NCBI GenBank assembly: GCA_964490075.1
Contig: CAZBBK010000059.1
Coordinates: 1-38,851 of the forward strand
Direction of reading: 5' to 3'
From: an uncultured Gemmatimonadota bacterium
GTDB taxonomy: Bacteria > GCA-2686955
DNA length: 38,851 nt
Shown here: in pieces, positions 20,792 through 38,479 of the stretch
How the letters are laid out: the number at the start of each line of letters is the position of its first letter
Numbering within the stretch: the stretch's first letter is position 1
Notes under the pieces: model-generated
Databases searched by the model: none
Seen by the model: only the letters and a program-made list of their open reading frames with translations
What the model was told of the DNA's origin: nothing
Made by a program: the position numbers and the translations under genes

Positions 20792-20820
20792 TTGACGGCA
20801 TCGGGGGCTTGCTCCATAAT
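20792..20820 (+). promoter_or_regulatory. Sigma-70 promoter for the Asp-box/CTD gene
   Basis: TTGACG, 17-nt spacer, CATAAT. Confidence 0.7.
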
Positions 20821-21009
20821 GCGCCGCACTCTTCGGGGAAATGCGTTGTGGCGCAAACGGTTGCCGCGAATTCGCCGGGGCCGCGAACGCCACGCCGGGC
20901 GCCTGACCCCGTGGTCGAATTGCCGGGAGAGATCGCACCGCGTGTCGAAAATCGGGTCTTGCGGCGGCAGGAGCCTCCACCCGGCCAGACTCTTACAGGA
21001 GCTAGAAGC

Positions 21010-22662
21010 ATGAAGTTTGCGCTCGCCGTAGCGGCGACCCTCGGCGCCCTCGTCTTCGCGTCCAGCGGCGCTTCCGCCGCCCCGACCTGGACCCTGCTCG
21101 CCGACTTCGACAAGGAAGCGACCGTCCTGACGGTTCAACCGGACGATGCCCAGACCCTGTGGGCCGCCTTCCGCACCACCGTCGCCGACAGCGCCGGGGT
21201 CTGGACCAGCGCCGACGGCGGCGCCACCTGGAGCCTCGCCTTCGACAGCCAGGGCGTGATCGTCAACGCCGTCGCCGTCGATCCCGAGAATCCCAGCTAC
21301 GTCTGGGTCGGCAAGGATGCCAACAAGGCCAACGTGTCGACCGACGGCGGCACCACCTGGAACGAAATCACCGGTTTCGGGTTTGGTAACAAGGTCTTCG
21401 ACATCGCGATCCCGAACGGCAACGACCCGGTCCTCGGCCCCTACCGCGTCTACTTCGCGACCACCAACGGCGTCTACTACACGCTCGACGGCGGTCAGAC
21501 CTTGACCCAGGTCTCCGGCCTGATCCCGATGAACCATATCGCGGTCTGCCCCGATGACCACCTGACGGTTTGGGCGGGCACCAAGGGTGCGGGGGGCTTG
21601 AGCTTCACCACCGACGGCGGAGCCACCTGGACCGACATCGACACCGCCAACTTCAACGACAAGGACCGGGCCCGCGGTCTGGGCATCAACGGCAACGACT
21701 GCGCCGAGATCCTGTTCAGCGCCTGGACTCCGAACCAGAGTCCCTACACCGGCATCACCACCGACAGCGGAACCACCTGGACCGAGCTCGATGTCGGCAC
21801 CGGTGAGGGCGTCATGGTCAACACCGCCGCCAACGGCACCTTCTACGGTGTCGCAGGCGGAGAGGGTGGGGTCTTCTTCTCCTCGACGGGCATGGCCTTC
21901 GACGCCTTCCCCGACGGGCTGGCCGACTTCCCGGTGCTGGTCGCTGGCGCCGCCGACGACGGAATGGATCTCTACTGCGCCACCGAGACCAAGATCTACT
22001 CCATGACCGCGAACTTCCATCCCGGGGCGCCGACCGGCATCGAAGCGGCCTGCTCCGGCGAGGACGAGGTCACGGTGAACTGGGACACGGTGACGCTCAA
22101 CGCCGACGGCAGCCTGGCCGACGACCTGGCCGGCTACGTGATCTGGGCCATCGTCCCGCCCTTCAGCCAGAACCGCGACACGGTCGACGTGGTGGCGGAT
22201 CCTCTGGCGACCGAGTACGTGCACACCAACTCGATCTTCCCGGTGCTGCAGTACACGGTGAGCGCTTACGACTCCGCCGGTATCGGCGGCGCCGAGGGTG
22301 ATGCCGGCGACGTGATCCTGATTCCCGACGACTGTGAGACCGGCATCGAAGACGGCGTGCCCGGCCTCGGGGCGGGCCTCACGGCGCTGGCGCAGAACAG
22401 CCCCAATCCCTTCAATCCGCGCACCGCGATCGACTACCAGGTCGCCGAGTCCGAGGCTGGCCAGCCGCTCTCGCTGGCGGTCTATGACGCGCGTGGCAGC
22501 CTGGTCCGCAGGCTGGTCGATGGCCCCGCCCTCGCCGGCAGTCACCGGACCAGCTGGGACGGCAAGGACGCCTCTGGCAACACCGTTGCTTCGGGTGCCT
22601 ACTTCGCTCGTCTGAGCGTCGGGTCGGTCCACCAGGTGCGCTCGATGCTCCTGGTGAAGTAG
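21010..22662 (+). CDS. Secreted BNR/Asp-box beta-propeller protein with FN3-like domain and FlgD-Ig/T9SS-type C-terminal domain
   Basis: Signal peptide MKFALAVAATLGALVFASSGASA; Asp-boxes SADGGATW, STDGGTTW, TLDGGQTL, TTDGGATW, TTDSGTTW; FN3-like VTVNWD...GYVIW...YTVSAYD; CTD QNSPNPFNP...WDGKD...ASGAYF...SMLLVK; AGGAG SD. Confidence 0.85.
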   Translation: MKFALAVAATLGALVFASSGASAAPTWTLLADFDKEATVLTVQPDDAQTLWAAFRTTVADSAGVWTSADGGATWSLAFDSQGVIVNAVAVDPENPSYVWVGKDANKANVSTDGGTTWNEITGFGFGNKVFDIAIPNGNDPVLGPYRVYFATTNGVYYTLDGGQTLTQVSGLIPMNHIAVCPDDHLTVWAGTKGAGGLSFTTDGGATWTDIDTANFNDKDRARGLGINGNDCAEILFSAWTPNQSPYTGITTDSGTTWTELDVGTGEGVMVNTAANGTFYGVAGGEGGVFFSSTGMAFDAFPDGLADFPVLVAGAADDGMDLYCATETKIYSMTANFHPGAPTGIEAACSGEDEVTVNWDTVTLNADGSLADDLAGYVIWAIVPPFSQNRDTVDVVADPLATEYVHTNSIFPVLQYTVSAYDSAGIGGAEGDAGDVILIPDDCETGIEDGVPGLGAGLTALAQNSPNPFNPRTAIDYQVAESEAGQPLSLAVYDARGSLVRRLVDGPALAGSHRTSWDGKDASGNTVASGAYFARLSVGSVHQVRSMLLVK

Positions 22663-22691: not shown

Positions 22692-22750
22692 GGGGCGATC
22701 GCGACCGCCGGGCGTCTTGGGCGCTCGGCCGTCGCGGTCGCCCCTTCTTC
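22692..22750 (+). terminator. Intrinsic terminator-like hairpin
   Basis: 25-nt arms GGGGCGATCGCGACCGCCGGGCGTC / GGCGCTCGGCCGTCGCGGTCGCCCC (one mismatch, three G-U pairs), TTG loop, then TTCTTC. Confidence 0.7.
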
Positions 22751-22839
22751 ATTGGGGTCCAAAGCCCGGAGCTTCGCCCACTGCGCCGGAACCCTTTCTG
22801 CTAAAGTCCCGGATTTCAGACCCCCGACCGGTTTCCACG

Positions 22840-23937
22840 ATGGCCCTGAAGCAGACCCCCTTTCACCCCTTTCATCTCGAGCTGGGCGCGAAGATGGTGC
22901 CCTTCGCCGGCTACGAGATGCCGATCCAGTACAGCGGCGTGATCGAGGAGCATCGATGCGTCCGCTCGGGGGCGGGCCTTTTCGATCTCTCGCACATGGG
23001 GGAGATCGAGCTGCGCGGGGAGGGCGTCCCGGCCTTTCTCGATCGTCTGCTCACCAACCGTTTCACCGATCTCCCCGTGGGGCGCGCCCGCTACACGGCG
23101 ATGTGCCGCGAGGACGGCGGCATCCTCGACGATCTGATCGTCTACCGCCTCCAGGACCGGCACCTCCTGGTCGTCAACGCCGCGAACTTCGAAGGCGATC
23201 TGGCCTGGATCCGCGCCCATGCGAGCGCCGGCGTCGAGGTGCTCGATGTGAACCAGGGGACGGCGCTGGCCGCGCTGCAGGGGCCTCGGGCCGAGGCGCT
23301 GGTGCAAAGGCTGACCGATGCCCCTCTCGAGACGTTGCCGTACTACGGCGTGGTGGAAACCGAGGTCGCCGCGCGCCCCGCCGTGGTCGCCCGCACCGGC
23401 TACACCGGCGAGGACGGCTTCGAGATCTACCTGGCGGCCGAGCACGCGGCGGCCCTCTGGCGCGCGATCACCGACCTTGGAGAGGGCGAGGGCCTGAGGC
23501 CGATCGGGCTCGCGGCCCGCGACACCTTGCGCCTGGAGATGAAGTACGCCCTCTACGGCAACGAGATCGATGAATCGACCACGCCCCTGGAGGCGGGGCT
23601 GGCGTGGATCGTGAAGCTCGACAAGGAGTTCATCGGGGCGAATGCGCTCCGTGCCCGGAAAGAGGCCGGAATCGGGCGGCGGCTGGTGGCCTTCGAGATC
23701 GAGGGTCGCGGGATTCCCCGGCCGGGTCATCGAATCGCGGTCGCGGGCGAAGGAGTCGGTGCGGTGACCAGCGGCACCTTCAGCCCCTCGCTGAGCCGCG
23801 GGATCGGCCTGGGCTACGTGAACCGTCCCCATACCCGACCGGGGACCGCCCTGGAGATCGAGGTTCGGGGGCGCCTCCTCGGCGCCCGGATTATCAAACC
23901 ACCCTTCTACAAGACTGGGAGCTTGCGCGCCGCCTGA
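22840..23937 (+). CDS. gcvT: Glycine cleavage system aminomethyltransferase T
   Basis: GAKMVPFAGYEMPIQY, FDLSHMGE, GGILDDLIVY, ALQGP, RTGYTGEDGFEI, ARDTLRLE, VTSGTFSPSL. Confidence 0.98.
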   Translation: MALKQTPFHPFHLELGAKMVPFAGYEMPIQYSGVIEEHRCVRSGAGLFDLSHMGEIELRGEGVPAFLDRLLTNRFTDLPVGRARYTAMCREDGGILDDLIVYRLQDRHLLVVNAANFEGDLAWIRAHASAGVEVLDVNQGTALAALQGPRAEALVQRLTDAPLETLPYYGVVETEVAARPAVVARTGYTGEDGFEIYLAAEHAAALWRAITDLGEGEGLRPIGLAARDTLRLEMKYALYGNEIDESTTPLEAGLAWIVKLDKEFIGANALRARKEAGIGRRLVAFEIEGRGIPRPGHRIAVAGEGVGAVTSGTFSPSLSRGIGLGYVNRPHTRPGTALEIEVRGRLLGARIIKPPFYKTGSLRAA

Positions 23938-24401: not shown

Positions 24402-24420
24402 ACGCCGAAGGTTGTACGCC

Positions 24421-27293
<2,873 letters not shown>

Positions 27294-27297
<4 letters not shown>

Positions 27298-28091
27298 GCT
27301 CCGATCCGGCCGCGGAGACCTGGTCGCTCTTCGATCCAGGGCTCCAGGACGGCGCCGAGGCGATGGCCCTCGACGATCTCGCGCTGCGCCGTGCCCGGCC
27401 CGGGAGCCGTCCGCTGCTGCACCTGTGGCGCTGGGCCGCGCCGGCGATCTCGATCGGTTACGCACAGACGGTCGAGATCCTCGACCGCGCGCGGGTGCGG
27501 GCGGCGGGACTGTCGATCGTGCGCCGCCCGACCGGCGGCAAGGCGGTGCTGCACCGCGGCGACATCTGCTACTCCTGCGTCGTTCCTCTGCCCTACCGCG
27601 ACTTCGATCGTGGCCTGCGGCCGGCCTACGAGTTCGTCGCCAATGCGATCGCCCGAGCGCTCAGGGCCCACGACCTGGAGTGCGCCCCGCCCACTCCTGC
27701 GCTGCACCCTGGGCCCGACCGCGGGTGCGTGAGCTGCGCGGCCGAGATCTACCCCTATGAGCTGGTCTCCGGCTCGACCAAGATCCTCGGCAGCGCCCAG
27801 AAGCGCACCAAGAAGGCGATCCTGGTGCAGGGCAGCATCGCCCCCGCCGGGCCGGCCGATCTGGCGCCTTTCCTGGCCTCGGGCGCGGCCGCCACTCCGC
27901 CGCCGGTCGAAGCGGGGTCGGGCTCCGCCGCACCCGAACCGGTGCTCAGCGCTGCGGCGATCGCGGCCGCGTTCGCGCGCGAGCATGCCATCGTCTTCGA
28001 GCCTTTGGTGTGGACGCCCCAAGAGCGGCGGGCGATCGTGGAGCTGGTCTCGAGGCGCTACGCGAGCGTCGATTACACGGCACGCATCTGA
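27294..28091 (+). CDS. Lipoate-protein ligase family protein, LipM (octanoyltransferase)-like
   Basis: [51 protein letters not shown]; 265 aa with no LplA C-terminal domain; ATGA-coupled to gcvP. Confidence 0.85.
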
Positions 28092-28450: not shown

Positions 28451-28601
28451 GGCAACAGAGCGCTCGGTTGCCGCCTCGCCTTCGCGACCCAGAGACAATC
28501 ATCGTCCATGATCCCGCGGTCGCCTGTCCGTCCAGGTTCCTCCATCGGCCCATCGTCCCAGCCTCGGCAACCTCTGTTCCCCGCCGAAGGGAGTGGAACT
28601 C

Positions 28602-31600
28602 GTGCGTAGATCCTCTCTTCTCCTGCTCCTTCCCGCTCTCGTTCTGTTCCTCTTCGCCCCCGCAGCTCGCGCCGGCGTCACCGGCAAGATCACCGGTCAG
28701 GTCTTCGACAAAGAGACCGGCGAGGTAATGCAGTACGTGAACGTCATCGTCGAGGACACGCACCTTGGGGCGATGACCGACGAAAAGGGCAAGTTCTTCA
28801 TCCTGAACGTGCCGCCCGGCTCCTACGACGTGCGCGCCGAGTCGATGGGCTACACCGCCCAGCGACAGCTCGGCGTCAAGGTGTTCAGCGACCGCAACAC
28901 GCCGGTCAAGTTCGAGCTGCTGCCGACAGTGATCGAATCGGAGGATTTCCAAACCGAGGTGGTGGCGACCCGGGCCTTGATTCAGAGAGACGTCACCAGC
29001 TCGATGCGCACGGTCAGCGCCGAGTCGATCGAGCAGATGCCGATCAACAACGTCAACGAGCTGCTGCAGACCACCGCGGGTGTGGTCTCCCAGGGCGGCG
29101 AGCTGCACTTCCGCGGCGGTCGCGGCAACGAGGCTCGCTACCTGGTCGACGGCATCTCGGTGAAGGACCCGATCACCGGCGAGGGCTCGGGTCTCAACGT
29201 CGGCCGCGCGGCCATCGAAGAGATCACCGTGCTGCAGGGCGGGTTCGATGCCGAGTACGGCGAGGCCCAGTCGGCGATCATCAAGGTCGTCACCAAGGAG
29301 GGAACTCCGGAATGGGGCGGATCGCTGCGCTACAAGAGCGACAATCTCAGCCCCGAGGCGTATAGCCTGAACTCCGACTACGCCGAGTTCTCGCTGCAGG
29401 GCCCGGAGCCGATCAGCTCGTATCTCTTCCCCGCGCTGGGCTTGGAGCTCCCCGGCGATCAGCTCACCTGGTTCTTCACCGCCACCGGTGATGTGCGCGA
29501 CACTCATACACCCTTCGCCAACAAACCGGCCGAGACCAACAATCTCCTCGGCTTCGATTTCGACAATCGCTACCGCAACGATCTGTCGCTAACTTCGAAG
29601 TGGGTTTGGAAGATCGGCACCGCCGACAAGCTGACCTTCAGCGTCAAGAACTCGTGGGAACAGCGTGACTACTACCAGCATTCCTTCACGCTGGTGCCGG
29701 AGCACGCCTACTGGCAGACCGAACGCAGCACTTCGCTGGCGTACGTGACCTGGAACCACACCATCAGCCCGCAGACCTTCTTCGAGCTGCGCGCCAGCCG
29801 GGTCCAAACCCAGACCATCCAGGACGCCGGCGCGCTGCCCAACGAGTTCCCACTGGAACCGGATCTCGGCGATCCGACCACCGTGCCCTGGGCCGAAGGG
29901 GAGTACTACGAGTGGTTCGCGAAGTACATCAATGCCGACGACTCGGAGCCTTTCGAAGATGGCGATCTGCTGGTCGACGCCTCCGAGATCTGGGACGATT
30001 TCGGTGAGGACCGTTTGCCCAATACTTTCGACCGCGGCGAAGGAGACGGTGTCCCCAACGACTGGCCCGATGACTCTCCGGTGAAACGCGAGACCGGCCG
30101 TGGCGGTTACGTCGATGTCGGCTTCGACGGCGTCGAGAGCACCGGCGACTACGGCGAGGGCGACGGCAGCTTCAATACCTACAATTCGCTGCCGGAGTTC
30201 CTGATCTTCGTTCCCGACTACTACGATCTCAATCACAACGCCCGCTACGAGATCGCCGAGCGCGATGCCGGCATGGGCGAGTGGTTCGTCGATCGCAACG
30301 GCAACGGTTACTACGACGCGCCCAACGGCCTTCACGACGACGGCGAAGCCTACCTGGACATGGACGGCAACAGCCACCGCAACAGCAACGACGGATTCTA
30401 CGACGGCGCGCGGCCGGAGGAGTTCTACACCGACGCGAACAACAACGCGCTCTACGACCCGCCTGAAACCTACGTCGACGCCAACAGCAACGGCCGCTTC
30501 GATGCCGGAGAGCCCTTTTACGACTACGGCCTCGACCAGCTGCCGAACACCAACGACTGGGGCGAGGGCAACGGGGTTTTCGACGTGCACCCCAGCGACC
30601 CCAGCGTGCACGAGTACTACGTCGATCTGAACGAGAACGGCAATTTCGACGGCGGCGAATCGTTCACCGACGGCGAGAGCTTCGCCGAGGACACCTTCCT
30701 CGACTCCAACAACGACGGTCGCTTCAACGACTACGACGAAAGCTACACCGATGCCAACGGCAACGGCCGCTGGGACATCGGCGAGGACTTCCAGGACTGG
30801 TCGAACGGCATTTTCGACGAGGGGGAGCCCTTCTCGGACGTGGGCTTGGACGGGATTCCGCGCACCGGCGACACCGGCGAGGCCGACGGTCATTGGGGCG
30901 AGGGCGAGCCTTTCTACGATTCCAACGGCAACGATCAGTACGATGCATTCACCGGCGCCCGCTACATCGATGCCAATCTCAACGGGCAATGGGATTGGGA
31001 CGACACCAACGGCGATGGCCGTTTCCAGACCAGCGACGCTTTCGAGCTCTTCTACAGCGACATCCTGATCGACTTCGGCGTCGACGGCCAGCCCAATACC
31101 CACGACGTGGGCGAGGGCAACGGCAGCTATGACACCGGCGAGCCCTTCTTCGACGTGATCGGCGACGGGGAGTGGGACCGTGGCGATACCTTCGTCGACC
31201 GCACCGGCAACGATCAGTACGACGGTGGCGAGCCCTTCTCCGATACCGGACCGGACGGCACCTATGCAACCTACGATCCGGGCCAGTGGAACGGTGTCTA
31301 CGACGTCGGCGAGCCGTACGAGGATCTGGACGGCGACGGCAGCTACACCTACGCGATTGCCGGCAACGGCCGCTGGGATGTGGGCGAGCCGTACCAGGAT
31401 CGTGACGGCGACGGCGAGTACGATGCGCCCAACGGCCGCTGGGATCGCGGCGAGCCATTCGTCGACGCCAACTTCAACGGCGTGTGGGACGAGGAGTACA
31501 TCGGCGCCTTCCGCCAGCACAGCCCCTATGAGAGAACCGAGTCGATCCAGTACACGGTTCTCGCCTCACTCGAAAGCCAGGCCTCCGAGCACCACATGGT

Positions 31601-32801
31601 GAAGGCGGGCGCGGAGTTCCGCCAGCACTTTTTGGAGCAGCAACGCATCAGCTATCCGTACTACCGATTCGTCGCGGCGGAAGGCAGCGTCGAAGCTACG
31701 GGACGATGGACCGAGCGCGGGATCTTTCGTAACTTTTGGGATGCGCCGCCGCTGGAAGGCGCGGTGTGGCTCCAGGACCAGTACGAGTGGGAAGACCTGA
31801 TCATCAAGTCGGGTTTGCGCTACGACTTCTGGGTGGTGCGAGGGATCTTCGGCGACGGCGGGACCGTGCCCGATACCCTGCGCAAGACCTTGGAGAACAA
31901 GGTGTCGCCGCGGCTCGGTGTCAGCTACCCGGTCTCCGAGCGCGACAAGATGTACTTCTCCTACGGCCATTTCTCCCAGGTTCCGGAGCTGTCTTCGATC
32001 TACAACTCCAATGAGCAGGGAGCGTCGGCGCTGGCGCTCAAGGGCAACTACGAGCTCAAGTCGCCGAAAACCGTGGCCTATGAGTTCGGCATCGACCACG
32101 CCTTCTCCGACGATGTGAAGGTCGACATCAAGGCGTTCTTCAAGGACTTCCGCGACCTGATCCAGGCGTCGCGCACGGTGAACGAGGCGACCGGGCGACC
32201 GGAATGGGTGTACCAGAACTCAGACTACGGAAGCGCTCGCGGGCTCGAGGTGGTGCTCGACAAGAGATACTCCGACTACACCTCCGGAAACCTCTCCTAC
32301 ACCTTCCAGTTCGCGACCGGGAAGAACTCCGACTCCTTCGACGGTTACGGCGCCTCGGCAACCACGCCGCGCGAGTTCCCGCTGGACTTCGACCAGCGCC
32401 ACTCGCTCTCTCTGAACATCGACTTCCGAGTGATGGCCGATCAGCATCCGGCGGTGGCCGGATTCAAGCTGCCGGACCGCTGGGGAGTCAATCTGCTGTG
32501 GCAGGTCGGCAGCGGCTTCCCCTACACGCCGGAGCTCTTCGGACGCGAGATCGGCGCCAAGAACTCCGCGCGCCTGCCGTGGACCGGCAACGTCGATGTG
32601 ATCGTCGACAAGAGCTTCGATCTCGCGAGCTTGCGCTACAACGTATTCGCCGAGGTCTCGAACCTGTTCGACCGCGAGAACGTGCAGTACGTCGATCCCG
32701 AGTACCGCACCTGGTACGGAGACAACCAACCGATCAACAGAAACCCGGCGCGTTTGCTGCCGGGGCGACAGATCGAGGTGGGATTCGAAATCGGATTCTA
32801 G
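28602..32801 (+). CDS. TonB-dependent receptor with N-terminal carboxypeptidase-regulatory-like domain and large acidic repeat insertion
   Basis: Signal peptide ending AARA; GKITGQVFDKETGE...TDEKGKFFILNVPPGSY; TonB-box-like TEVVAT; plug HFRGGR...YLVDG...GGFDAEYG...VVTK; barrel motifs GLRYD, SPRLGVSYP, YFSYGHF, DQRH, NLFD; terminal Phe (GFEIGF). AAGGGAG SD supports GTG 28602. Confidence 0.92.
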   Translation: MRRSSLLLLLPALVLFLFAPAARAGVTGKITGQVFDKETGEVMQYVNVIVEDTHLGAMTDEKGKFFILNVPPGSYDVRAESMGYTAQRQLGVKVFSDRNTPVKFELLPTVIESEDFQTEVVATRALIQRDVTSSMRTVSAESIEQMPINNVNELLQTTAGVVSQGGELHFRGGRGNEARYLVDGISVKDPITGEGSGLNVGRAAIEEITVLQGGFDAEYGEAQSAIIKVVTKEGTPEWGGSLRYKSDNLSPEAYSLNSDYAEFSLQGPEPISSYLFPALGLELPGDQLTWFFTATGDVRDTHTPFANKPAETNNLLGFDFDNRYRNDLSLTSKWVWKIGTADKLTFSVKNSWEQRDYYQHSFTLVPEHAYWQTERSTSLAYVTWNHTISPQTFFELRASRVQTQTIQDAGALPNEFPLEPDLGDPTTVPWAEGEYYEWFAKYINADDSEPFEDGDLLVDASEIWDDFGEDRLPNTFDRGEGDGVPNDWPDDSPVKRETGRGGYVDVGFDGVESTGDYGEGDGSFNTYNSLPEFLIFVPDYYDLNHNARYEIAERDAGMGEWFVDRNGNGYYDAPNGLHDDGEAYLDMDGNSHRNSNDGFYDGARPEEFYTDANNNALYDPPETYVDANSNGRFDAGEPFYDYGLDQLPNTNDWGEGNGVFDVHPSDPSVHEYYVDLNENGNFDGGESFTDGESFAEDTFLDSNNDGRFNDYDESYTDANGNGRWDIGEDFQDWSNGIFDEGEPFSDVGLDGIPRTGDTGEADGHWGEGEPFYDSNGNDQYDAFTGARYIDANLNGQWDWDDTNGDGRFQTSDAFELFYSDILIDFGVDGQPNTHDVGEGNGSYDTGEPFFDVIGDGEWDRGDTFVDRTGNDQYDGGEPFSDTGPDGTYATYDPGQWNGVYDVGEPYEDLDGDGSYTYAIAGNGRWDVGEPYQDRDGDGEYDAPNGRWDRGEPFVDANFNGVWDEEYIGAFRQHSPYERTESIQYTVLASLESQASEHHMVKAGAEFRQHFLEQQRISYPYYRFVAAEGSVEATGRWTERGIFRNFWDAPPLEGAVWLQDQYEWEDLIIKSGLRYDFWVVRGIFGDGGTVPDTLRKTLENKVSPRLGVSYPVSERDKMYFSYGHFSQVPELSSIYNSNEQGASALALKGNYELKSPKTVAYEFGIDHAFSDDVKVDIKAFFKDFRDLIQASRTVNEATGRPEWVYQNSDYGSARGLEVVLDKRYSDYTSGNLSYTFQFATGKNSDSFDGYGASATTPREFPLDFDQRHSLSLNIDFRVMADQHPAVAGFKLPDRWGVNLLWQVGSGFPYTPELFGREIGAKNSARLPWTGNVDVIVDKSFDLASLRYNVFAEVSNLFDRENVQYVDPEYRTWYGDNQPINRNPARLLPGRQIEVGFEIGF
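29937..31490 (+). repeat. Intragenic degenerate Asp/Gly-rich peptide repeats in the TonB receptor
   Basis: At least 15 Dx[ND]x[ND]G-type loops in a GEP[FY]xDxNxNGx[WYF]D frame, plus six DxGxDxxxxTxDxG[EQ]x[ND]G units, counted by eye in the translation. Confidence 0.9.
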
Positions 32802-32875
32802 CTTGACTTCCGGCCGGTCTCGTCAATGCGACACCGGCGCTCGGGCCACCACGGACCGAGGTCTGGAGGACGAAG

Positions 32876-35440
32876 ATGAGAATGCGCACGTGGATGGCGG
32901 CGGCCGCAGCGGCCGTTGTGACCCTGGATCCGGCGGGCACCGCGTCCGCCATCTGGAGCTCGGAAGGTGGCGAGCACGATTCGCCCGAGCCGCCGATTCG
33001 CCGCTCCGAGCAAGGAGCCCAGGCTGGATCCGAGGTTCAGCAGCTCTGCCATGACGTGTCGAATCTGTGGCTTCTGGTCTCCAACTTCGGGGTCTTCGGT
33101 CTCGCCGAAGAGACCAACGTCAATCCCTACGAAGAGACCTGCGGCCACGAGGGCTATATCTCCTGCCAGTTCCCGGCCCGCGGTGGCTACGACTATCTGT
33201 TTCAGGGCGCTCTCTGGGTCGGCGCCATCGTCGGCGACGACACTCTGGTGAGTGTCGGCCACGACGGCTGGCAGCTCGAGCTGGAGTTCTTCCCGGGCAC
33301 CGACGCTGCCGACACGATTCAGGCCTACACCAACAACCCGAGCGCGGCAAACTACGATTCGGTGCTCGGTCTGGCGGACCAGAGCTTCGTCGCCGAGTAC
33401 ACCGATACGCTGACCGCGGCCGACGATCCGAACGTCTCCCCGAACCACCGCAAGCCGCTGAATATCAGCGTGCGACAGACCTCGCACGCGCTCTCTTTCA
33501 GCTACGCCGAGGATTTCGTCATCTTCGACTACGAGATCGAGAATCTCGGCCTGAAGACTCTGAAGGACGTATTCATCGGCATCTACCTCGATGGCGACGT
33601 GGGGCCGGTCCCGCAGAACGATACTGATGCCTCCGCCAACGCGCAGGACGACGTCACGGGCTTCCGGCGCTTCTCCGCCGACGGCTTGAAGCAGATCGAC
33701 GCGGCGTGGCTGGCCGACTACGACGGCCCCGAGTATCGCAACCTCGGTTCCGGCGACGGCGTGCTGGTGCCTGGCGTGATGGGCGTGCGAGTGGTTCGCT
33801 CGCCGGCCAAGGAGCTGCTCACGACATTCAACTGGTGGCTCTCCGATACCGACGATCAGAAGGATTGGGGGCCGGGGAGCTCGTTCCCGACCGGAGGTGA
33901 CGGTACTCCGGACGGGGATATCGCCAAGTATCTGATCATGAGCGGCTGGCAGAACAGGCAGCTCTCGGATCCCGGAATCGATCCCGACCAGCTCGACTCG
34001 ACGCTGCCCGCCGGAGGCGACGTTGGCGCCGAAGATACCCGCTTCCTGTTCTCATTCGGTCCCTTCACCATCGAACCGGGGGCCGCGGAAAAGCTGCCCT
34101 TCACGCTCGGCTATTTCTGCGCCGAAAACTTCTGGCAGGCCGGTGACGTCGCGGCCAACGACTTCACCGACTTCGACATCAACGCGCAGTGGGTGCAATT
34201 CGTCTTCGACAACCCCGGAGTGGATACCGACTCCTACGACTATGGCGCCGACGGCATCCCGAACACCGCGGACGCCGGTGAGGCCGATGGGATCTACGAT
34301 ACCGGCGACTTCTTCGCCGGCGAGGACACTGGCGCCGACGGCCTGCCGGGGACCTTCGACGCGGGAGAAGGAAACGGCGTGTTGGATGCCGGTGAAGATA
34401 CCGCGTTGGGCTACGTGATCCGTTGGATCGACCCCGATCCCGGCAACCCGGAACAGACCGGGCTCGAGTACCTGCGCAGCATCGCCGCGGAGATCGACTG
34501 GGATCAGGATGTCGAAGAGATCATGGCCGACTACCCGCGCGTGCACCTGGTCAACGAGGCGCGTTTCGGCGCCGAGAACGGCAGGCTCGATGAAGGGGAC
34601 GGAGTGCCCGACTTCTCCGGACCGCCGCCGCCTCCCTCGCCGACTCTGAAGGTCGAGAAGCCCGATGCCAACCACTTGGTCTTCAAGTGGTCCGACGACG
34701 CGGAGAGCTTCGTCGACGGCTTCATTCCGGAGCAGAATCGACGCCGCGACTTCCAGGGCTATCGGGTCTACGTGAGCCGAACCGGCGCCGGGAGTGATTT
34801 CACCAACATCGTCGACCTCGACATCGCCCAGGTGCCGATCTACGACGAAGAGCTGAACATCATCGGCTACCAGGCCGACTCGCTGGGGCGGAACACCGGC
34901 TTCGAGGCGATTCTCAACACCGACGCCGACTCCACGGAGTATCGCTACCGCTACGCGTACGGGCCTCTGCTCTCGAACTGGCCCGTCTATTGCGCGGTCA
35001 CCGCCTACGACAACGGCTATCCGCCGGCGAATCTGGGTTCGCTGGAGTCGAGCGTGTTCAACAACGCGCAGGCGATTACTCCGACGACCCCGGCTGCCGA
35101 CGTGGCGCAAGCCCCGATCATGGTCGTCCCCAACCCGTACAAGATCACCACCGACTATCGCGACGGGTGGGAGAAGGACACACAGTCCTGGACCGAGTTC
35201 GATCGCAGGATCGCTTTCACCAATCTGCCGGGAAGGTCGACGATCCGGATCTTCACGCTCTCTGGCGACTTGGTCGACGAGTTCGACTTCGTGCCGGAGC
35301 ACGAGGACGACACGATGGCCGACTGGGATCTGATCTCGCGCAACGGTCAGGCCATCGTCAGCGGCATCTACCTCTTCGCGGTCGAGCCGGCGGGTGGCGG
35401 CGGCGACACCGAAGTCGGCAAGTTCGTGGTTCTCAAGTAG
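32876..35440 (+). CDS. Secreted acidic 854-aa protein with FN3-like domain and T9SS-like C-terminal domain; function unknown
   Basis: Signal peptide ending ASA; SCQFP...YLFQGALWVGAI N-domain; PPPPPSP linker; FN3-like VFKW...FQGYRVY...AVTAYDNG; CTD VVPNPY...FTNLP...IRIFTLSGDLV...WD...SGIYLF...GKFVVLK; GGAGG SD. Confidence 0.85.
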   Translation: MRMRTWMAAAAAAVVTLDPAGTASAIWSSEGGEHDSPEPPIRRSEQGAQAGSEVQQLCHDVSNLWLLVSNFGVFGLAEETNVNPYEETCGHEGYISCQFPARGGYDYLFQGALWVGAIVGDDTLVSVGHDGWQLELEFFPGTDAADTIQAYTNNPSAANYDSVLGLADQSFVAEYTDTLTAADDPNVSPNHRKPLNISVRQTSHALSFSYAEDFVIFDYEIENLGLKTLKDVFIGIYLDGDVGPVPQNDTDASANAQDDVTGFRRFSADGLKQIDAAWLADYDGPEYRNLGSGDGVLVPGVMGVRVVRSPAKELLTTFNWWLSDTDDQKDWGPGSSFPTGGDGTPDGDIAKYLIMSGWQNRQLSDPGIDPDQLDSTLPAGGDVGAEDTRFLFSFGPFTIEPGAAEKLPFTLGYFCAENFWQAGDVAANDFTDFDINAQWVQFVFDNPGVDTDSYDYGADGIPNTADAGEADGIYDTGDFFAGEDTGADGLPGTFDAGEGNGVLDAGEDTALGYVIRWIDPDPGNPEQTGLEYLRSIAAEIDWDQDVEEIMADYPRVHLVNEARFGAENGRLDEGDGVPDFSGPPPPPSPTLKVEKPDANHLVFKWSDDAESFVDGFIPEQNRRRDFQGYRVYVSRTGAGSDFTNIVDLDIAQVPIYDEELNIIGYQADSLGRNTGFEAILNTDADSTEYRYRYAYGPLLSNWPVYCAVTAYDNGYPPANLGSLESSVFNNAQAITPTTPAADVAQAPIMVVPNPYKITTDYRDGWEKDTQSWTEFDRRIAFTNLPGRSTIRIFTLSGDLVDEFDFVPEHEDDTMADWDLISRNGQAIVSGIYLFAVEPAGGGGDTEVGKFVVLK

Positions 35441-35466
35441 AGACTCGAAAAAGGAGACAGAACCCC

Positions 35467-36426
35467 ATGAAGGCAAAGGCTCTGATCCTGACAACCGGGT
35501 GGTTCCTGGTGGTGTCGGGTGCCCACGCGCAGGACAAGGTCGGGACCGCCGCTGCGCAGTTCCTGAAGGTGGGGGTGAGTGCGCGTGCCGTCGGCATGGG
35601 CGACGCCCACGTGGCAGCGGCCGACGACGCATCCGGGCTCTTCTACAACCCGGCGGCGATCACGGCGGTTCCAGGGGGAGAGGCCTTGCTCTCCCACATC
35701 GATCTCTATCACGGGGCGGGAATCTCCTACGAGTTCGCCGGCGTCGTGCTGCCGACCTACGTGGCCTCCGGCCGGGTCGGCTTGAGCTTCCAGGCGTTGC
35801 GCACCGACGACATGGCCGAGACGACACCGAGCGCTCCGACCGGAACCGGTCGCCATTTCCGATCGTCGGAGTACGCGCTCGCCGGCAGCTATGCACTGGA
35901 GCTCACCGACAAGTTCTCCGCCGGCTTCACCTTCCGTTTCATCACCTCGTTCCTGGCCAACCTGGACGCCTACCGCGAAGAGGCTGCGGTCGATGCGTCG
36001 GCCAGCTCCTGGGGAATCGACATCGGGACCTTGTATCGCACCGGCTATCACGGCATCAACTTTGGCATGGCGATCAGCAACTTCGGTCCCGATCTCACCT
36101 ACCTGGTCGAGCCCGCACCGCTGCCGATCAACTTCAAGGTCGGTGTCTCCGCCGACGCCTTCCGCAGCGCGGGCCAGGCGCTGGTGGTCGCGGTCGAAGG
36201 CAGCCATCCCAACGACAACCGCGAGCGCGCCAATGTCGGCGCCGAGTACAGCCTCGGTGATTGGGTGGCGCTGCGCGGTGGCTATCGTTTCGAGTACGAC
36301 GACGAGAAATGGAGCCTCGGGGGCGGCGTGAAGCTCTCGGGCGGGTCGGTGCGATTCGACTACGCCTACACCTCCATGGAGATCCTCCCCGACGTTCACA
36401 GATACACGCTGGGGATTCGCTTCTAG
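35467..36426 (+). CDS. PorV/PorQ-family (UPF0164-like) outer-membrane beta-barrel
   Basis: Signal peptide ending AHA; KVGTAAAQFLKVGVSARAVGMGDA...DASGLFYNPA, NFGP, LPINFKVG, HPNDNRE, GAEY, LRGGY, FDYAY; terminal Phe; AAGGAG SD. Confidence 0.88.
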   Translation: MKAKALILTTGWFLVVSGAHAQDKVGTAAAQFLKVGVSARAVGMGDAHVAAADDASGLFYNPAAITAVPGGEALLSHIDLYHGAGISYEFAGVVLPTYVASGRVGLSFQALRTDDMAETTPSAPTGTGRHFRSSEYALAGSYALELTDKFSAGFTFRFITSFLANLDAYREEAAVDASASSWGIDIGTLYRTGYHGINFGMAISNFGPDLTYLVEPAPLPINFKVGVSADAFRSAGQALVVAVEGSHPNDNRERANVGAEYSLGDWVALRGGYRFEYDDEKWSLGGGVKLSGGSVRFDYAYTSMEILPDVHRYTLGIRF

Positions 36427-36507: not shown

Positions 36508-36643
36508 GCGCACCTTCGAACATAAGACGGTTTGACGGCGTCGGCCCCACTCGGAGCCTCTCGGGCTCTCGGTTCGGTTGGAGCCGTGTATCGCGGAAAC
36601 TCCGTGGTATGGGCGCCTGAACCCTGTCTCACGAGGAGACGAG

Positions 36644-38479
36644 ATGATCAATCGCTATGCGTTGGTGCTCACCGCACCGGCCGTCATGCTCTCGTCGGGA
36701 TTGGCGAGCCAGGCCGTGGCCTCGATGACCACCATCAGGCACGCCGAAAGGGTCCCCAATGCCACGGTCGGCAACGAGATTCACAAAGCGGGAAGCTACT
36801 TCGCGGTTCCCCCGTTGGACTCGGTGCTGGTGGTGCAGAACGGCATCGATCGAGGCGGTGACTTCAGCGGCCCGACCGACTACCCGCAAGAGCGCCACGT
36901 GGTGTACGTGCCCTCCGAGGACACCTACTTCGCGTTCTACGAGTGGAACACCGCGAACGACTTCATGATCAGCGCCCGCTATTGGCAAGAGGTCGCCGGC
37001 TTCGGCTTCTGGTCGGCCGAGGGCACGCCGTCGGAGCGCGGTACGCAGCAAGACGCTGGCCGTCCCAGCGCGCACGAGTACGACGGTGGCGTGATGGTCG
37101 CCTACCACGCGACCTTCGACCTGAACGTCTACAACACCTGGATCAATCGCTTCGACTTCGCGACGCAGTCGTGGGGAACCAGCGTGCAGATCACCGACCA
37201 CGCGGTCGGCAGCACCTTCCCCTTCCTTGATCGCTCTTCGGACGATACCTGGATGATCGTGTCGCAAGAGGGCCCAGGCCCGGTCGATATCGTCGTCAAC
37301 ATCTCCAACGACGACGGCGCGACCTGGACCCAGAACACCGTGGCGACTGGCGTCAACGACATGTGGTGCCTGCCGAGCGGCGCGGCCGATCCCAGCAACG
37401 GCGATCTCTACGTCGCTTACAACGACGATCTGGATGACGATAACGATCTGGATATCGTGGTCCACCAGTCGACCGACGGCGGCATGACCTGGAGCGCGCC
37501 GCAAATGGTCGCCGACGGCGCGATCTACAGCCAGAAGATCGAGCCCTCTCTGGTCGTCGACCAAACGCACCGCGTGCACCTGGTTTACCAGGGCAATATC
37601 TCCGACGAAATCAGCGCGGGCTTGTCCGGGCTCACCACCATCGGCGTCGCGGGTCCGCCCTATCACAGCTACGGCGCGTTCGTCGCCGGTGCCTGGGTGC
37701 CGGAGCTGACCATCCCGATCATGGATCGGGACGAGCTGGTGGCGCTGCCCGACAGCTGCGAGATGGGACCGACGCTGGCCAACCTGGCCACCGACACCCT
37801 CACCGGTATGCCGCAGCTCGGCATCTACCGGGGAATGCAGGGTGATCAGCTCTATGTCGGCTACAACTCCTCCTACCAGTCGATCTTCGACACTGAGCAG
37901 GGCGGCTGGCTGATCTGCGGTCCCGGCTTCCAGACCTGGATGCAGAAGTGCGAGGTCGGTGCCGACGAGGCGGACACGCTGGTCTGGTCGGAGCGCACCA
38001 TGGTGTCGGATATCTCCATCGACGACGCCCTGCTCGGCAAGAACACCATCTACACCCACACCACGCACGAGATCCCCTTGGCCGGTCCGGGCTTCATCTG
38101 GTCCGAGATGTTCGAGGCTTTGCAGCCGGCCGAGGTGATGTTCAATCGACCCGAGGTGGTCGGGATCGAAGGCGATCGACCCGGTGCGCCCACGGCCCCG
38201 GGCAAGGTGGCATTGCACCAGAATGCCCCGAACCCCTTCAATCCGTCGACCCGCATCGGTTTCGAGCTGGCCGAGGCCGGTTCGGTCGAGCTGAACGTGT
38301 ATGACGCCAGCGGCCGCAAAGTCCGCAGCCTGGCACAGGGTGAGATGTCGGCCGGATCGCACAAGGTGCGGTGGGACGGCACCACCGACCAGGGCGCGAC
38401 GGTTGCTTCGGGCGTCTACTTCTACCGTCTGACGACCCAGAGCGAGACCCAGACGCGGTCGATGCTGATCCTCAAGTAG
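36644..38479 (+). CDS. Secreted BNR/Asp-box (sialidase-fold-like) protein with FlgD-Ig/T9SS-type C-terminal domain
   Basis: Signal peptide ending AVA; Asp-boxes SNDDGATW and STDGGMTW; CTD QNAPNPFNPSTRIGF...VYDASGRKVR...WDGT...ASGVYFYRL...SMLILK; GAGGAG SD before ATG 36644. Confidence 0.85.
   Translation: MINRYALVLTAPAVMLSSGLASQAVASMTTIRHAERVPNATVGNEIHKAGSYFAVPPLDSVLVVQNGIDRGGDFSGPTDYPQERHVVYVPSEDTYFAFYEWNTANDFMISARYWQEVAGFGFWSAEGTPSERGTQQDAGRPSAHEYDGGVMVAYHATFDLNVYNTWINRFDFATQSWGTSVQITDHAVGSTFPFLDRSSDDTWMIVSQEGPGPVDIVVNISNDDGATWTQNTVATGVNDMWCLPSGAADPSNGDLYVAYNDDLDDDNDLDIVVHQSTDGGMTWSAPQMVADGAIYSQKIEPSLVVDQTHRVHLVYQGNISDEISAGLSGLTTIGVAGPPYHSYGAFVAGAWVPELTIPIMDRDELVALPDSCEMGPTLANLATDTLTGMPQLGIYRGMQGDQLYVGYNSSYQSIFDTEQGGWLICGPGFQTWMQKCEVGADEADTLVWSERTMVSDISIDDALLGKNTIYTHTTHEIPLAGPGFIWSEMFEALQPAEVMFNRPEVVGIEGDRPGAPTAPGKVALHQNAPNPFNPSTRIGFELAEAGSVELNVYDASGRKVRSLAQGEMSAGSHKVRWDGTTDQGATVASGVYFYRLTTQSETQTRSMLILK

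Follow-up and report, generated by a model that had tools for sequence, protein, structure and literature searches.

A recurrent gene trio of TonB-dependent receptor, CTD-bearing secreted protein and PorV/PorQ-family barrel as a candidate SusD-free uptake module

In the genome of an uncultured Gemmatimonadota bacterium, we found three co-oriented genes encoding a TonB-dependent receptor (gene A), a secreted protein from a family without a name (gene B) and an outer-membrane barrel of the PorV/PorQ family (gene C). This A-B-C arrangement recurs far beyond chance, being present three times in the source genome and also across phyla, and the invariant pair within it is the receptor and the barrel. 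The reading that we favor, albeit at somewhat less than even confidence, is that of a SusD-free uptake module, in which a binding protein would be exported by the T9SS and tethered via its uncleaved C-terminal domain (CTD) to a barrel of its own.

Gene organization and genomic surroundings

The window, i.e. the entire 38,851-nucleotide stretch that was analyzed, carries all three genes on the plus strand (as are all features described below), with gaps of 74 nt between A and B and 26 nt between B and C, just as the first-pass annotation had described. Gene A spans 28593..32801 and encodes 1402 aa; an alternative start at 28602 (GVG), three codons into the ORF, is as possible as the one at 28593. 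Gene B (32876..35440) encodes 854 aa and gene C (35467..36426) encodes 319 aa, counted from the ATG behind AAAGGAGA. A scan for sigma-70 promoters returned 0 sites, with 0.9 expected, while terminator-like sites and matches to the sigma-54 consensus both occurred at chance level, the latter with no site upstream of A. Four DNA runs from a single marine metagenome study contain the stretch, and no RNA run is listed.

An LplA-like gene in the window is the end of a gcvT-gcvP cluster, and such a gene was also found upstream in 16 out of 20 loci with a C-type barrel (see below). Lipoate uptake, a function suggested by this upstream gene, was considered and dropped, LipA being found in the genome (377 bits). 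On the other side of the trio lies gene D (36644..38479, with an alternative ORF start, TTG, at 36578), which encodes a BNR-repeat protein with a type-A CTD, possibly an accessory. Depending on which of the two starts is used, D is 611-633 aa long and begins 151-217 nt after C. It matches FlgD_ig (E 2.8e-14) and TIGR04183 (35 bits), falls just under the cut-off for BNR_2 (31.1 bits), and has short sialidase BNR matches. With this co-oriented gene downstream of C, the earlier statement that no hydrolase follows the receptor holds only in part. D was nevertheless rejected as a conserved fourth member, as its homologs after C are limited to the closest relatives (L018, L020 and L025), with none in the other phylum, where genes of 530-670 aa after C had no Pfam match.

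The receptor encoded by gene A

An N-terminal CarboxypepD_reg domain, as in SusC-type receptors, covers residues 33-117 of A (28689..28943; PF13715, E 1.1e-15; PF13620, E 2.4e-14) and is followed by a plug at residues 131-225 (28983..29267; PF07715, E 2.4e-13, 51 bits, cut-off 23.9). Together with the 22-strand-type barrel domain TonB_dep_Rec_b-barrel (PF00593, 81.4 bits, cut-off 27), the plug identifies A as a TonB-dependent receptor, both being above the Pfam cut-offs. A TonB-box-like EVVAT, picked out by eye and not by a model, precedes the plug at residues 122-126. On the SusC/RagA model TIGR04056, which has its cut-off at 368 bits, A reached 58 bits and matched with residues 32-217 only, i.e. 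in its N-terminal part; with this score, and with no SusD/RagB gene adjoining, A falls outside the SusC/RagA family.

Residues 430-985 (29880..31547) form a 556-residue loop insert that is rich in Asp, Asn and Gly (D 16%, G 14% and N 8%, versus 6%, 8% and 4% in the rest of A) and contains ten D-x-[DN]-x-[DN]-G motifs. The insert is probably extracellular and Ca-binding. Orthologs from other phyla, among which are shorter receptors of 1100 aa, keep part of it, with an occupancy of 0.45-0.9 in the residue ranges 600-800 and 920-1000, and it is missing from the paralogous receptors on C8 and C11, where the module is kept. A 16-residue motif is present in two copies in this insert and in another two in an acidic insert of B, and A and B are the only ORFs to contain it out of the 35,786 of the source genome, in a post hoc test, A and B themselves having served to define the pattern.

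Fold and C-terminal domain of the gene B product

As judged by eye, B has a signal peptide and no lipobox Cys. No Pfam family matched it, its profile had 0 matches at E<=1 among PDB sequences, and in the ESM Atlas it was placed in clusters without names only. Every named protein among its 162 relatives is annotated as 'hypothetical', and 620 relatives were found in genome_contigs.

By AF2 modeling and fold search, the N-terminal domain (residues 52-450, 33029..34225) is a galactose-mutarotase-like beta-supersandwich of the type found in carbohydrate enzymes. The AF2 model, based on 64 sequences, has a pLDDT of 84.8 and a pTM of 0.90, and its best fold matches (VIA) are 9ju0 (Z 18.9, 251 aligned, rmsd 3.3) and 1lf6 (Z 18.9, 233 aligned, rmsd 2.9), followed by the N-domains of GH94, GH65 and GH116 and by aldose 1-epimerases at Z 12-13. 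None of the 50 matches listed has a Z below 11.4, and 123 chains reach a Z of 8 or more, which places the modeled domain in this fold. Foldseek returned TxGH116 (E 1.7e-8). Invariant residues of the domain are H57, E135, D175, E210/D211 and D256/D257, in the numbering of the sequence comparison. The P1 domain of YidC likewise matches (Z 12.8), and the fold is therefore not proof of glycan binding by B. The acidic insert comes next (residues ~455-520, 34238..34435; low pLDDT in the full-length model), and beyond it the strand pattern points to an Fn3-like beta-sandwich region (residues ~587-752, 34634..35131), with a pLDDT of 70-89 in the full model and with Fn3 arrays as its Foldseek matches.

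The CTD (35099..35440) belongs to a distinct class, here called B-type, whose closest counterpart in the fold search is the CTD of PorZ (5m11, residues 686-776; Z 11.1, rmsd 2.8, 89 aligned, 20% identity). The first-pass annotation was thus right in seeing a T9SS-like CTD in the middle protein, but its framing in terms of type-A and type-B CTDs had to be abandoned: the type-A models TIGR04183 and PF18962 gave no match to B at E<=0.01, no type-B model was listed for it in the NCBIfam scan, and the downstream barrel is of the PorV/PorQ and not the PorP/SprF family. Moreover, a jackhmmer search started from a type-A CTD collected 59 ORFs in the source genome, and B was not among them. The precedent is PorZ-PorQ rather than SprB-SprF. 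On the PorZ model NF052228, B matched weakly and with its CTD only (residues 775-852, E 0.0024, 16.3 bits against a cut-off of 260). B was rejected as a PorZ ortholog, since the CTD alone matches and the body is modeled as a supersandwich; the body of PorZ is a double propeller.

The barrel and the T9SS of the source genome

With 195.5 bits on NF033709 (cut-off 90, profile positions 1-326), C is a member of the PorV/PorQ family of 14-strand-type barrels, as had been proposed from the sequence. It is below the cut-offs of both PorV proper (NF033710, 78.4 versus 250 bits) and PorQ proper (NF033711, 82.9 versus 220 bits), and the sole PDB match of its profile is F. johnsoniae PorV (6h3i_F, E 5.9e-30). 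A PorU-linked gene of the PorV family is located elsewhere in the source genome (C74:7443-8411).

The source genome, which is 95% complete, contains three modules made up of an A-like receptor, a B-type CTD and a C-like barrel, and the one on C11 follows sulfatase and GH13 genes, i.e. a PUL-like context. An HMM of the B-type CTD found four ORFs in this genome (66-153 bits; next best 19 bits), three of which are situated directly upstream of the genome's three best PorV-family barrels, a one-to-one pairing of CTD class and barrel class. More generally, 10 of the genome's 13 PorV-like ORFs have an ORF for a CTD protein just before them on their own strand; in a complete genome from another phylum, this holds for 5 out of 9.

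That no SusD gene follows the receptor can be extended to the whole of the 95%-complete genome, in which SusD_RagB had no match (the control was positive in B. thetaiotaomicron). A search for a T9SS, put forward in the first pass as a check, yielded the SprA translocon (cut-off 200; 522 bits as the sum over a single frame of 2059 aa) and the PorU sortase (518 bits, cut-off 420). GldK gave partial matches only (up to 76 bits versus a cut-off of 350), with nothing clear resembling a porKLMN-like operon in their surroundings, and the GldL, GldM and GldM_1st models had no match in the source genome, these models being silent on the controls as well.

Conservation of the gene order

Of the 106 B-family ORFs found in 76 loci, 19 had an A-type receptor directly upstream. 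Where the receptor was upstream and the downstream flank was readable, a C-type barrel came after B in 13 out of 16 cases. The order of the trio is thus conserved elsewhere, across candidate phyla, as had been anticipated. The B tree (trees were built with FastTree) splits into two clades. All 26 rows in a receptor/barrel context belong to the clade of 34 rows, which has a support of 100, while 0 of the 74 rows in the other clade had this context.

At E<=1e-50, C-type barrels occurred in 95 out of 101 genomes sampled from one phylum and in 3 out of 3 from a second; in a third phylum, 9 out of 61 genomes had one at E<=1e-40. Among 20 C-type loci, hand-picked rather than drawn at random, an A-type receptor was directly upstream of the barrel in all 19 that were readable. 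B was situated between A and C in 10 of the 20 and absent from the locus in the other 10. This loss maps to one clade, in which A and C are kept, and all 10 genomes concerned carry B-family genes elsewhere. With B missing from the locus there, to regard the barrel as an anchor belonging to B would be too simple, and C does not serve a cis-encoded B alone. Of the earlier claim that C is dedicated to B, what stands is the special CTD class, three of whose four ORFs adjoin C-type barrels; what does not is the exclusiveness. In one phylum the A-C pair is near-universal, mostly single-copy and found beside housekeeping genes. This pattern appears more typical of a core function of the envelope than of a locus for a specific substrate and in this respect runs counter to an uptake reading.

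These loci lend themselves to an alternative that we consider unlikely, in which C is chiefly a partner of the receptor. The two barrels would form a unit, with C as a FadL-like side channel or as an assembly or stabilizing subunit, and B would be ordinary T9SS cargo encoded between them by chance, shuttled by C or by a general PorV and then released or LPS-linked. Such a unit would agree with the unbroken adjacency of A and C (19/19), also at loci without B, with the confinement of B loss to a single clade that retains the pair, and with the BAM of Bacteroidota, where, as far as the two accounts go, a FadL-type barrel sits tight on a larger one (BamG-BamA; PMC12578637, PMC12611786). It would leave unexplained why B and C are duplicated as a unit, with barrel DNA that is 98.4-100% identical between the tandem copies while the B proteins are 59-69% and their CTDs 76-99% identical. 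The match in number and position between B-type CTDs and C-type barrels also argues against it, as does the finding that PorV-like genes come after CTD-protein genes (10/13) with no receptor nearby.

Proposed mechanism

In the uptake module that we favor, A would be an import channel that is powered by TonB and built like SusC (CarboxypepD_reg, plug and barrel) with a large acidic extracellular loop. B would be made with a Sec signal peptide, without a lipid anchor, and would cross the outer membrane through the T9SS, whose components SprA, PorU and PorV have homologs in the genome. On the surface it would display the predicted supersandwich and bind or trim a glycan, the putative substrate. 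Its PorZ-like CTD would probably stay uncut and bound to C, the barrel encoded by the neighboring gene. As C would in turn sit beside A, these B-C and A-C contacts would keep the ligand-binding head of B over the receptor.

A wider version of this, possible but in our view doubtful, would be a lipoprotein-free 'utilisome' in the SusD-less phyla of the FCB group, i.e. one stable complex in which a SusC-like receptor is joined by a supersandwich lectin, exported by the T9SS, and by a PorQ-like barrel holding the lectin's uncleaved PorZ-like CTD. Most PorV-family paralogs in these phyla would then each be dedicated to tethering the CTD protein of the gene immediately upstream, and the T9SS would additionally serve for display, with an anchor specific to each protein in place of LPS linkage.

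In the T9SS attachment complex of Porphyromonas gingivalis, as far as it is described in PMC10202324, the CTDs of PorZ and PorU are retained, bound to PorQ and PorV, respectively. B and C could accordingly be taken as the PorZ-PorQ equivalent of the phyla studied here, i.e. a T9SS component for sorting or attachment that provides the sortase with a surface glycan or with LPS, with the receptor having a separate or other role. Among known CTDs that of B is closest to PorZ, C scores higher on PorQ than on PorV, no PorZ above cut-off was found in the source genome, the pair is near-universal in one phylum, and a fold of the glycan-binding type would fit LPS handling. This equivalence is still decidedly unlikely, considering that the genome has three paralogous modules, one of them in a sulfatase/GH13 locus, that a whole clade has no B at the locus, that the most constant neighbor is the receptor, and that NF052228 matches the CTD only (16 bits versus 260), the body of B being a predicted supersandwich. 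Lastly, an adhesion or surface-layer unit, with B as an adhesin shown on C and A as a structural anchor with an acidic Ca-binding loop instead of a transporter, would be in line with the large acidic repeat insert of A and its motif shared with B, the Fn3-like domains and the B-family tandem arrays of up to four copies seen elsewhere (such arrays are frequent in adhesin families), but is very improbable, given that A keeps the plug and the TonB-box-like motif as well as the N-terminal domain that functional transporters typically have, that the C8 and C11 modules persist with receptors lacking the insert, and that one paralogous module has a PUL-like context.

Comparison with known systems and significance

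The favored uptake module resembles the SusC/SusD (RagA/RagB) pairs and utilisomes of Bacteroidota, as portrayed in part in PMC7618045, in that the gene for a CarboxypepD_reg TonB receptor immediately precedes that for a ligand-binding partner exposed on the surface, in our case a predicted one, and in that one paralogous module is placed behind genes for carbohydrate-active enzymes. It differs in that B is not a SusD-type lipoprotein, having no lipobox and a T9SS-type CTD, and in that the third gene encodes a PorV-family barrel. With PorZ-PorQ and PorU-PorV it shares the nearest CTD structure, the slight preference of C for PorQ (82.9 versus 78.4 bits) and, presumably, the holding of a surface protein by a barrel; unlike them, B has a supersandwich body with Fn3-like domains, B and C are adjacent behind a TonB receptor, and the equivalog cut-offs for PorZ, PorQ and PorV are not reached. 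Type-B CTD cargo with a PorP/SprF-like barrel, e.g. SprB-SprF in the outline given by PMC9143113, is similar in its special CTD class with an own barrel gene next to it, but there the barrel is of another family, and B matches no type-B CTD model. Two further complexes offer partial likenesses within what their accounts cover: a TonB receptor with a stably bound surface protein in BtuB-BtuG (PMC10404256), and a FadL-type 14-strand barrel gripping a surface protein by its extracellular loops in BamG-BamH (PMC12578637). Both of these surface proteins are, unlike B, lipoproteins without a CTD or the T9SS. A full-text literature search found no paper describing a triplet of receptor, CTD protein and PorV-family barrel.

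SusC/SusD is the textbook route of polymer capture in Bacteroidota. Among the relatives of this phylum that are devoid of SusD are Zixibacteriota as well as several small candidate phyla that are often encountered in sediments and sea water, and we know of no described route by which their TonB receptors are fed. The module offers a concrete and testable answer to how these organisms serve such receptors, as well as a first functional handle on the large unnamed B family, with its 620 relatives in a single genome collection. In PorZ-PorQ, a CTD is retained on its cognate barrel, and the module would carry this principle beyond that single complex of a single pathogen, to what appears to be a general rule for gene pairs (10 out of 13 in the source genome). 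Conserved as it is in poorly known bacterial phyla, the arrangement may there replace the SusC/SusD pair in nutrient capture.

Gene content of the locus

The window is contig C59 of the source genome G000, a marine metagenome-assembled genome of 5.7 Mb and 95% completeness, whose phylum is represented by five species-level genomes in the collection used. The nearest public relatives carry the label 'Gemmatimonadetes' MAGs. Three co-oriented genes were found with the spacing claimed in the first-pass annotation, i.e. gaps of 74 and 26 nt. These are the TonB-dependent receptor gene A (28593-32801, plus strand, 1402 aa; CarboxypepD_reg domain, plug and TonB-receptor barrel), gene B for a secreted protein with a C-terminal domain (CTD; 32876-35440, plus strand, 854 aa), and the PorV/PorQ-family barrel gene C (35467-36426, plus strand). 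Shine-Dalgarno-like stretches precede B (GGAGG) and C (AAGGAGA). A scored 58 bits with the SusC/RagA model, far under the cut-off of 368, and SusD_RagB had no match in the source genome while its positive control did match. C reached 195.5 bits with the PorV/PorQ family (cut-off 90) and fell under the equivalog cut-offs of PorV and PorQ alike, PorQ giving the slightly higher score. Searched against solved structures, the C-type barrel profile matched solely F. johnsoniae PorV (E 5.9e-30).

The product of gene D, which follows C at 36578-38479, combines BNR repeats with a type-A CTD and could act as a secreted hydrolase. Elsewhere the genome encodes four full-length paralogues of it (contigs C20, C43, C1 and C5; identity 40-68%), and a D-type gene after C was seen in the closest relatives only. 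Upstream of A lies a gcv cluster, starting with gcvT (22717-23937), containing gcvP (24412-27297) and ending with a divergent LplA-like gene (27135-28091); LipA is also encoded in the genome. In another phylum, too, an LplA-like gene immediately precedes an A-type receptor at 16 of 20 loci; no functional tie is obvious for this deep synteny. A further putative T9SS cargo gene of the window, at 20809-22662, encodes a 617-aa protein that has a type-A CTD and resembles F510_1955-family glycosylhydrolases in one region (E 6e-19, under the cut-off).

Structure of the middle protein

B matched no Pfam family, no solved structure was found for it by sequence, and its relatives are 'hypothetical' wherever they bear a name. 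Read by eye, it has a signal peptide and lacks a lipobox cysteine. AlphaFold2 gave a mediocre model of full-length B (pLDDT 62.5), in which residues 740-852 nonetheless superpose on the PorZ CTD 5m11 (Z 11.1, rmsd 2.8, 89 residues, 20% identity), in agreement with a weak NCBIfam PorZ-CTD match. Modelled alone from a 64-sequence alignment, the N-domain was confident (pLDDT 84.8, pTM 0.90), and is predicted to be a galactose-mutarotase-like supersandwich. Two structures matched it best, both with Z 18.9: 9ju0 (251 aligned) and the N-domain of the bacterial glucoamylase 1lf6 (233 aligned, rmsd 2.9). They were followed by N-domains of GH94, GH65, GH116, GH149 and GH161 enzymes and by lyase domains; aldose 1-epimerases scored Z 12-13, and the P1 domain of YidC Z 12.8. 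N-domain and CTD are separated by an acidic insert and by Fn3-like sandwiches.

A 16-residue motif, G-x-D-G-x-P-[NRGD]-T-x-D-x-G-E-[GA]-[DN]-G, is found twice in this acidic insert (34238-34435) and twice in a loop insert of A (residues 430-985, 29880-31547), which is rich in D (16%), G (14%) and N (8%) and holds ten D-x-[DN]-x-[DN]-G motifs. Only two out of 35,786 ORFs in the source genome, A and B themselves, carry the longer motif; since the pattern was built from these two, the observation is post hoc. It recurs in the A and B orthologues of four related loci, and is absent from an orphan B paralogue on contig C30. The loop insert is partly present in receptors of other phyla and absent from the paralogous receptors on C8 and C11.

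Conservation of the triplet

Searching species-representative genomes with an 18-sequence alignment gave 620 relatives of B, from which 76 loci with 106 B-family ORFs were kept. The proposed order of receptor, CTD protein and barrel recurs among them: an A-type receptor was directly upstream of 19 of the 106, with a C-type barrel next in 13 of the 16 with a readable downstream flank, and four further ORFs sit in the second B-C unit of A-B-C-B-C loci. Another 56, with both flanks readable, had neither neighbor and were mostly in tandem B arrays. A FastTree tree split the family into two clades (support 100), one of 34 rows, including all 26 in receptor or barrel context and three recent stray copies, and one of 74 rows with none in such context. 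Members of the second clade form tandem arrays, the longest with four genes (L033, L039, L047, L048, L066, L079, L093 and others), with no receptor or barrel found within 10 kb. Nevertheless, among the 55 B proteins of full length (>700 aa) in no-PorV context, 54 were matched by the window's CTD (E<1e-5). Component bit scores of A, B and C concur on orthologous triplets.

In the phylum with the complete Zixibacteriota chromosome (G005), a C-type barrel was found in 95 of the 101 genomes sampled, mostly as a single copy and in seven genomes as two. Such barrels were also found in all three genomes of a small phylum with MAGs labelled Eisenbacteria and Fermentibacteria, and in 9 of the 61 genomes from the phylum to which a Cloacimonadota-labelled MAG belongs. 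An 'Ignavibacteria'-labelled MAG (G006, locus L055) grouped in the phylum of G005, and several other such labels among the B relatives may be mislabels.

Among 20 hand-picked C-type loci, taken from high scorers, complete chromosomes and the lowest scorers, an A-type receptor was directly upstream of the barrel in all 19 with enough flank. B lay between them in ten; in the other ten it was missing and A abuts C. Receptor and barrel thus stand as the invariant pair of the proposed triplet, while B as its constant middle gene does not. When 35 A-type receptors were placed in a tree, the ten loci without B grouped as a single nested clade (support 100), so that the simplest history is an ancestral A-B-C with a single loss of B. 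All ten genomes carry one to seven B-family genes elsewhere, which means that the barrel could act in trans on B-type CTDs.

Tandem B-C duplicates in four loci (L062, L075, L055 and L038) have barrel genes 98.4-100% identical in DNA, B proteins 59-69% identical and CTDs 76-99% identical. The two B genes of A-B-C-B-C loci barely align, unlike their barrel genes. It looks as if gene conversion had acted only on the barrel and, partially, on the end of B that codes for the CTD; collapsed assembly is an unlikely cause, because the pattern is seen again in independent MAGs. A barrel, and partly a CTD, that stay uniform as the B head diverges are expected if a common anchor bears variable ligand-binding heads.

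Secretion genes and the proposed mechanism

The T9SS-like export that the first-pass annotation assumed for B has a translocon and sortase counterpart in the genome, where SprA is present (522 bits summed in one frame), as is PorU (518 bits), with PorV-family genes on both sides. The PorU locus (L103, G000:C74:1-14000) comprises a PorV2-like barrel, PorU, a PorV-family barrel and proteins of 356 and 1205 aa, both with barrel-like C-termini and no family match, the larger with a faint SprA-like stretch. GldK gave partial matches only, and the GldL and GldM models, whose controls were also silent, had no match.

The best-supported mechanism, which we propose tentatively, is a SusD-free capture-and-import unit. 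In this, A would import, B, predicted to be exported by the T9SS, would bind or trim glycan via its supersandwich, as its fold suggests, and C, predicted to sit with A, would hold B by an uncleaved PorZ-like CTD. Retention of CTDs on PorV and PorQ, described in PMC10202324, is a precedent, and that paper also puts forward the conjecture that cognate PorV-like barrels protect CTDs. Against such a unit, A-C persists without B in cis, the distribution is core-like with adjoining housekeeping genes, and a supersandwich fold alone does not establish function. That persistence would suit a two-barrel unit of receptor and barrel with B as plain cargo, which we consider unlikely. Somewhat less likely again is a PorZ/PorQ-like sorting complex, to which the tail of B and the PorQ score of C would point; no PorZ above the cut-off was found in the source genome. 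An adhesion or surface-layer unit seems improbable. The individual parts of the capture-and-import unit are of known kinds, and their combination is undescribed in the openly accessible papers searched.

Pairing of CTD proteins and barrels

With an HMM built on the C-terminal 115 residues of the B family, four source-genome ORFs were found (153, 146, 74 and 66 bits; next match 19 bits). Three are directly upstream of the genome's three best PorV-family barrels (C59, C11 and C8), each pair being preceded by an A-like receptor, and the fourth is the orphan copy on C30, 58% identical to B. A jackhmmer search from a type-A CTD gave 59 ORFs, B not among them. By these profile matches, the CTD of B forms a separate class that pairs with dedicated barrels. 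The middle proteins of separate triplets are distantly related along their entire length. An incomplete census with the A-type HMM found seven receptor-like ORFs, three in triplets and two more after type-A CTD proteins. The C11 module (L099, G000:C11:76000-92000) is PUL-like, with a sulfatase, a GH13 alpha-amylase family member, an A-like receptor, a 1066-aa B-type-CTD protein, a PorV-like barrel and a type-A CTD ORF on one strand. Behind the C8 module come genes for a histidine kinase and a sigma-54 response regulator.

Pairs of a CTD protein and a PorV-family barrel also occur on contigs C74, C6, C75, C42, C45 and C21. A complete genome of another phylum has one more receptor/B-type-CTD protein/barrel triplet, and five of its nine PorV-like ORFs follow a CTD-protein ORF. 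In the source genome ten out of 13 PorV-like ORFs, PorU-PorV included, come after a same-strand CTD-protein ORF, seven of these pairs with a type-A CTD, which suggests that barrels specific to one protein exist well beyond PorU-PorV.
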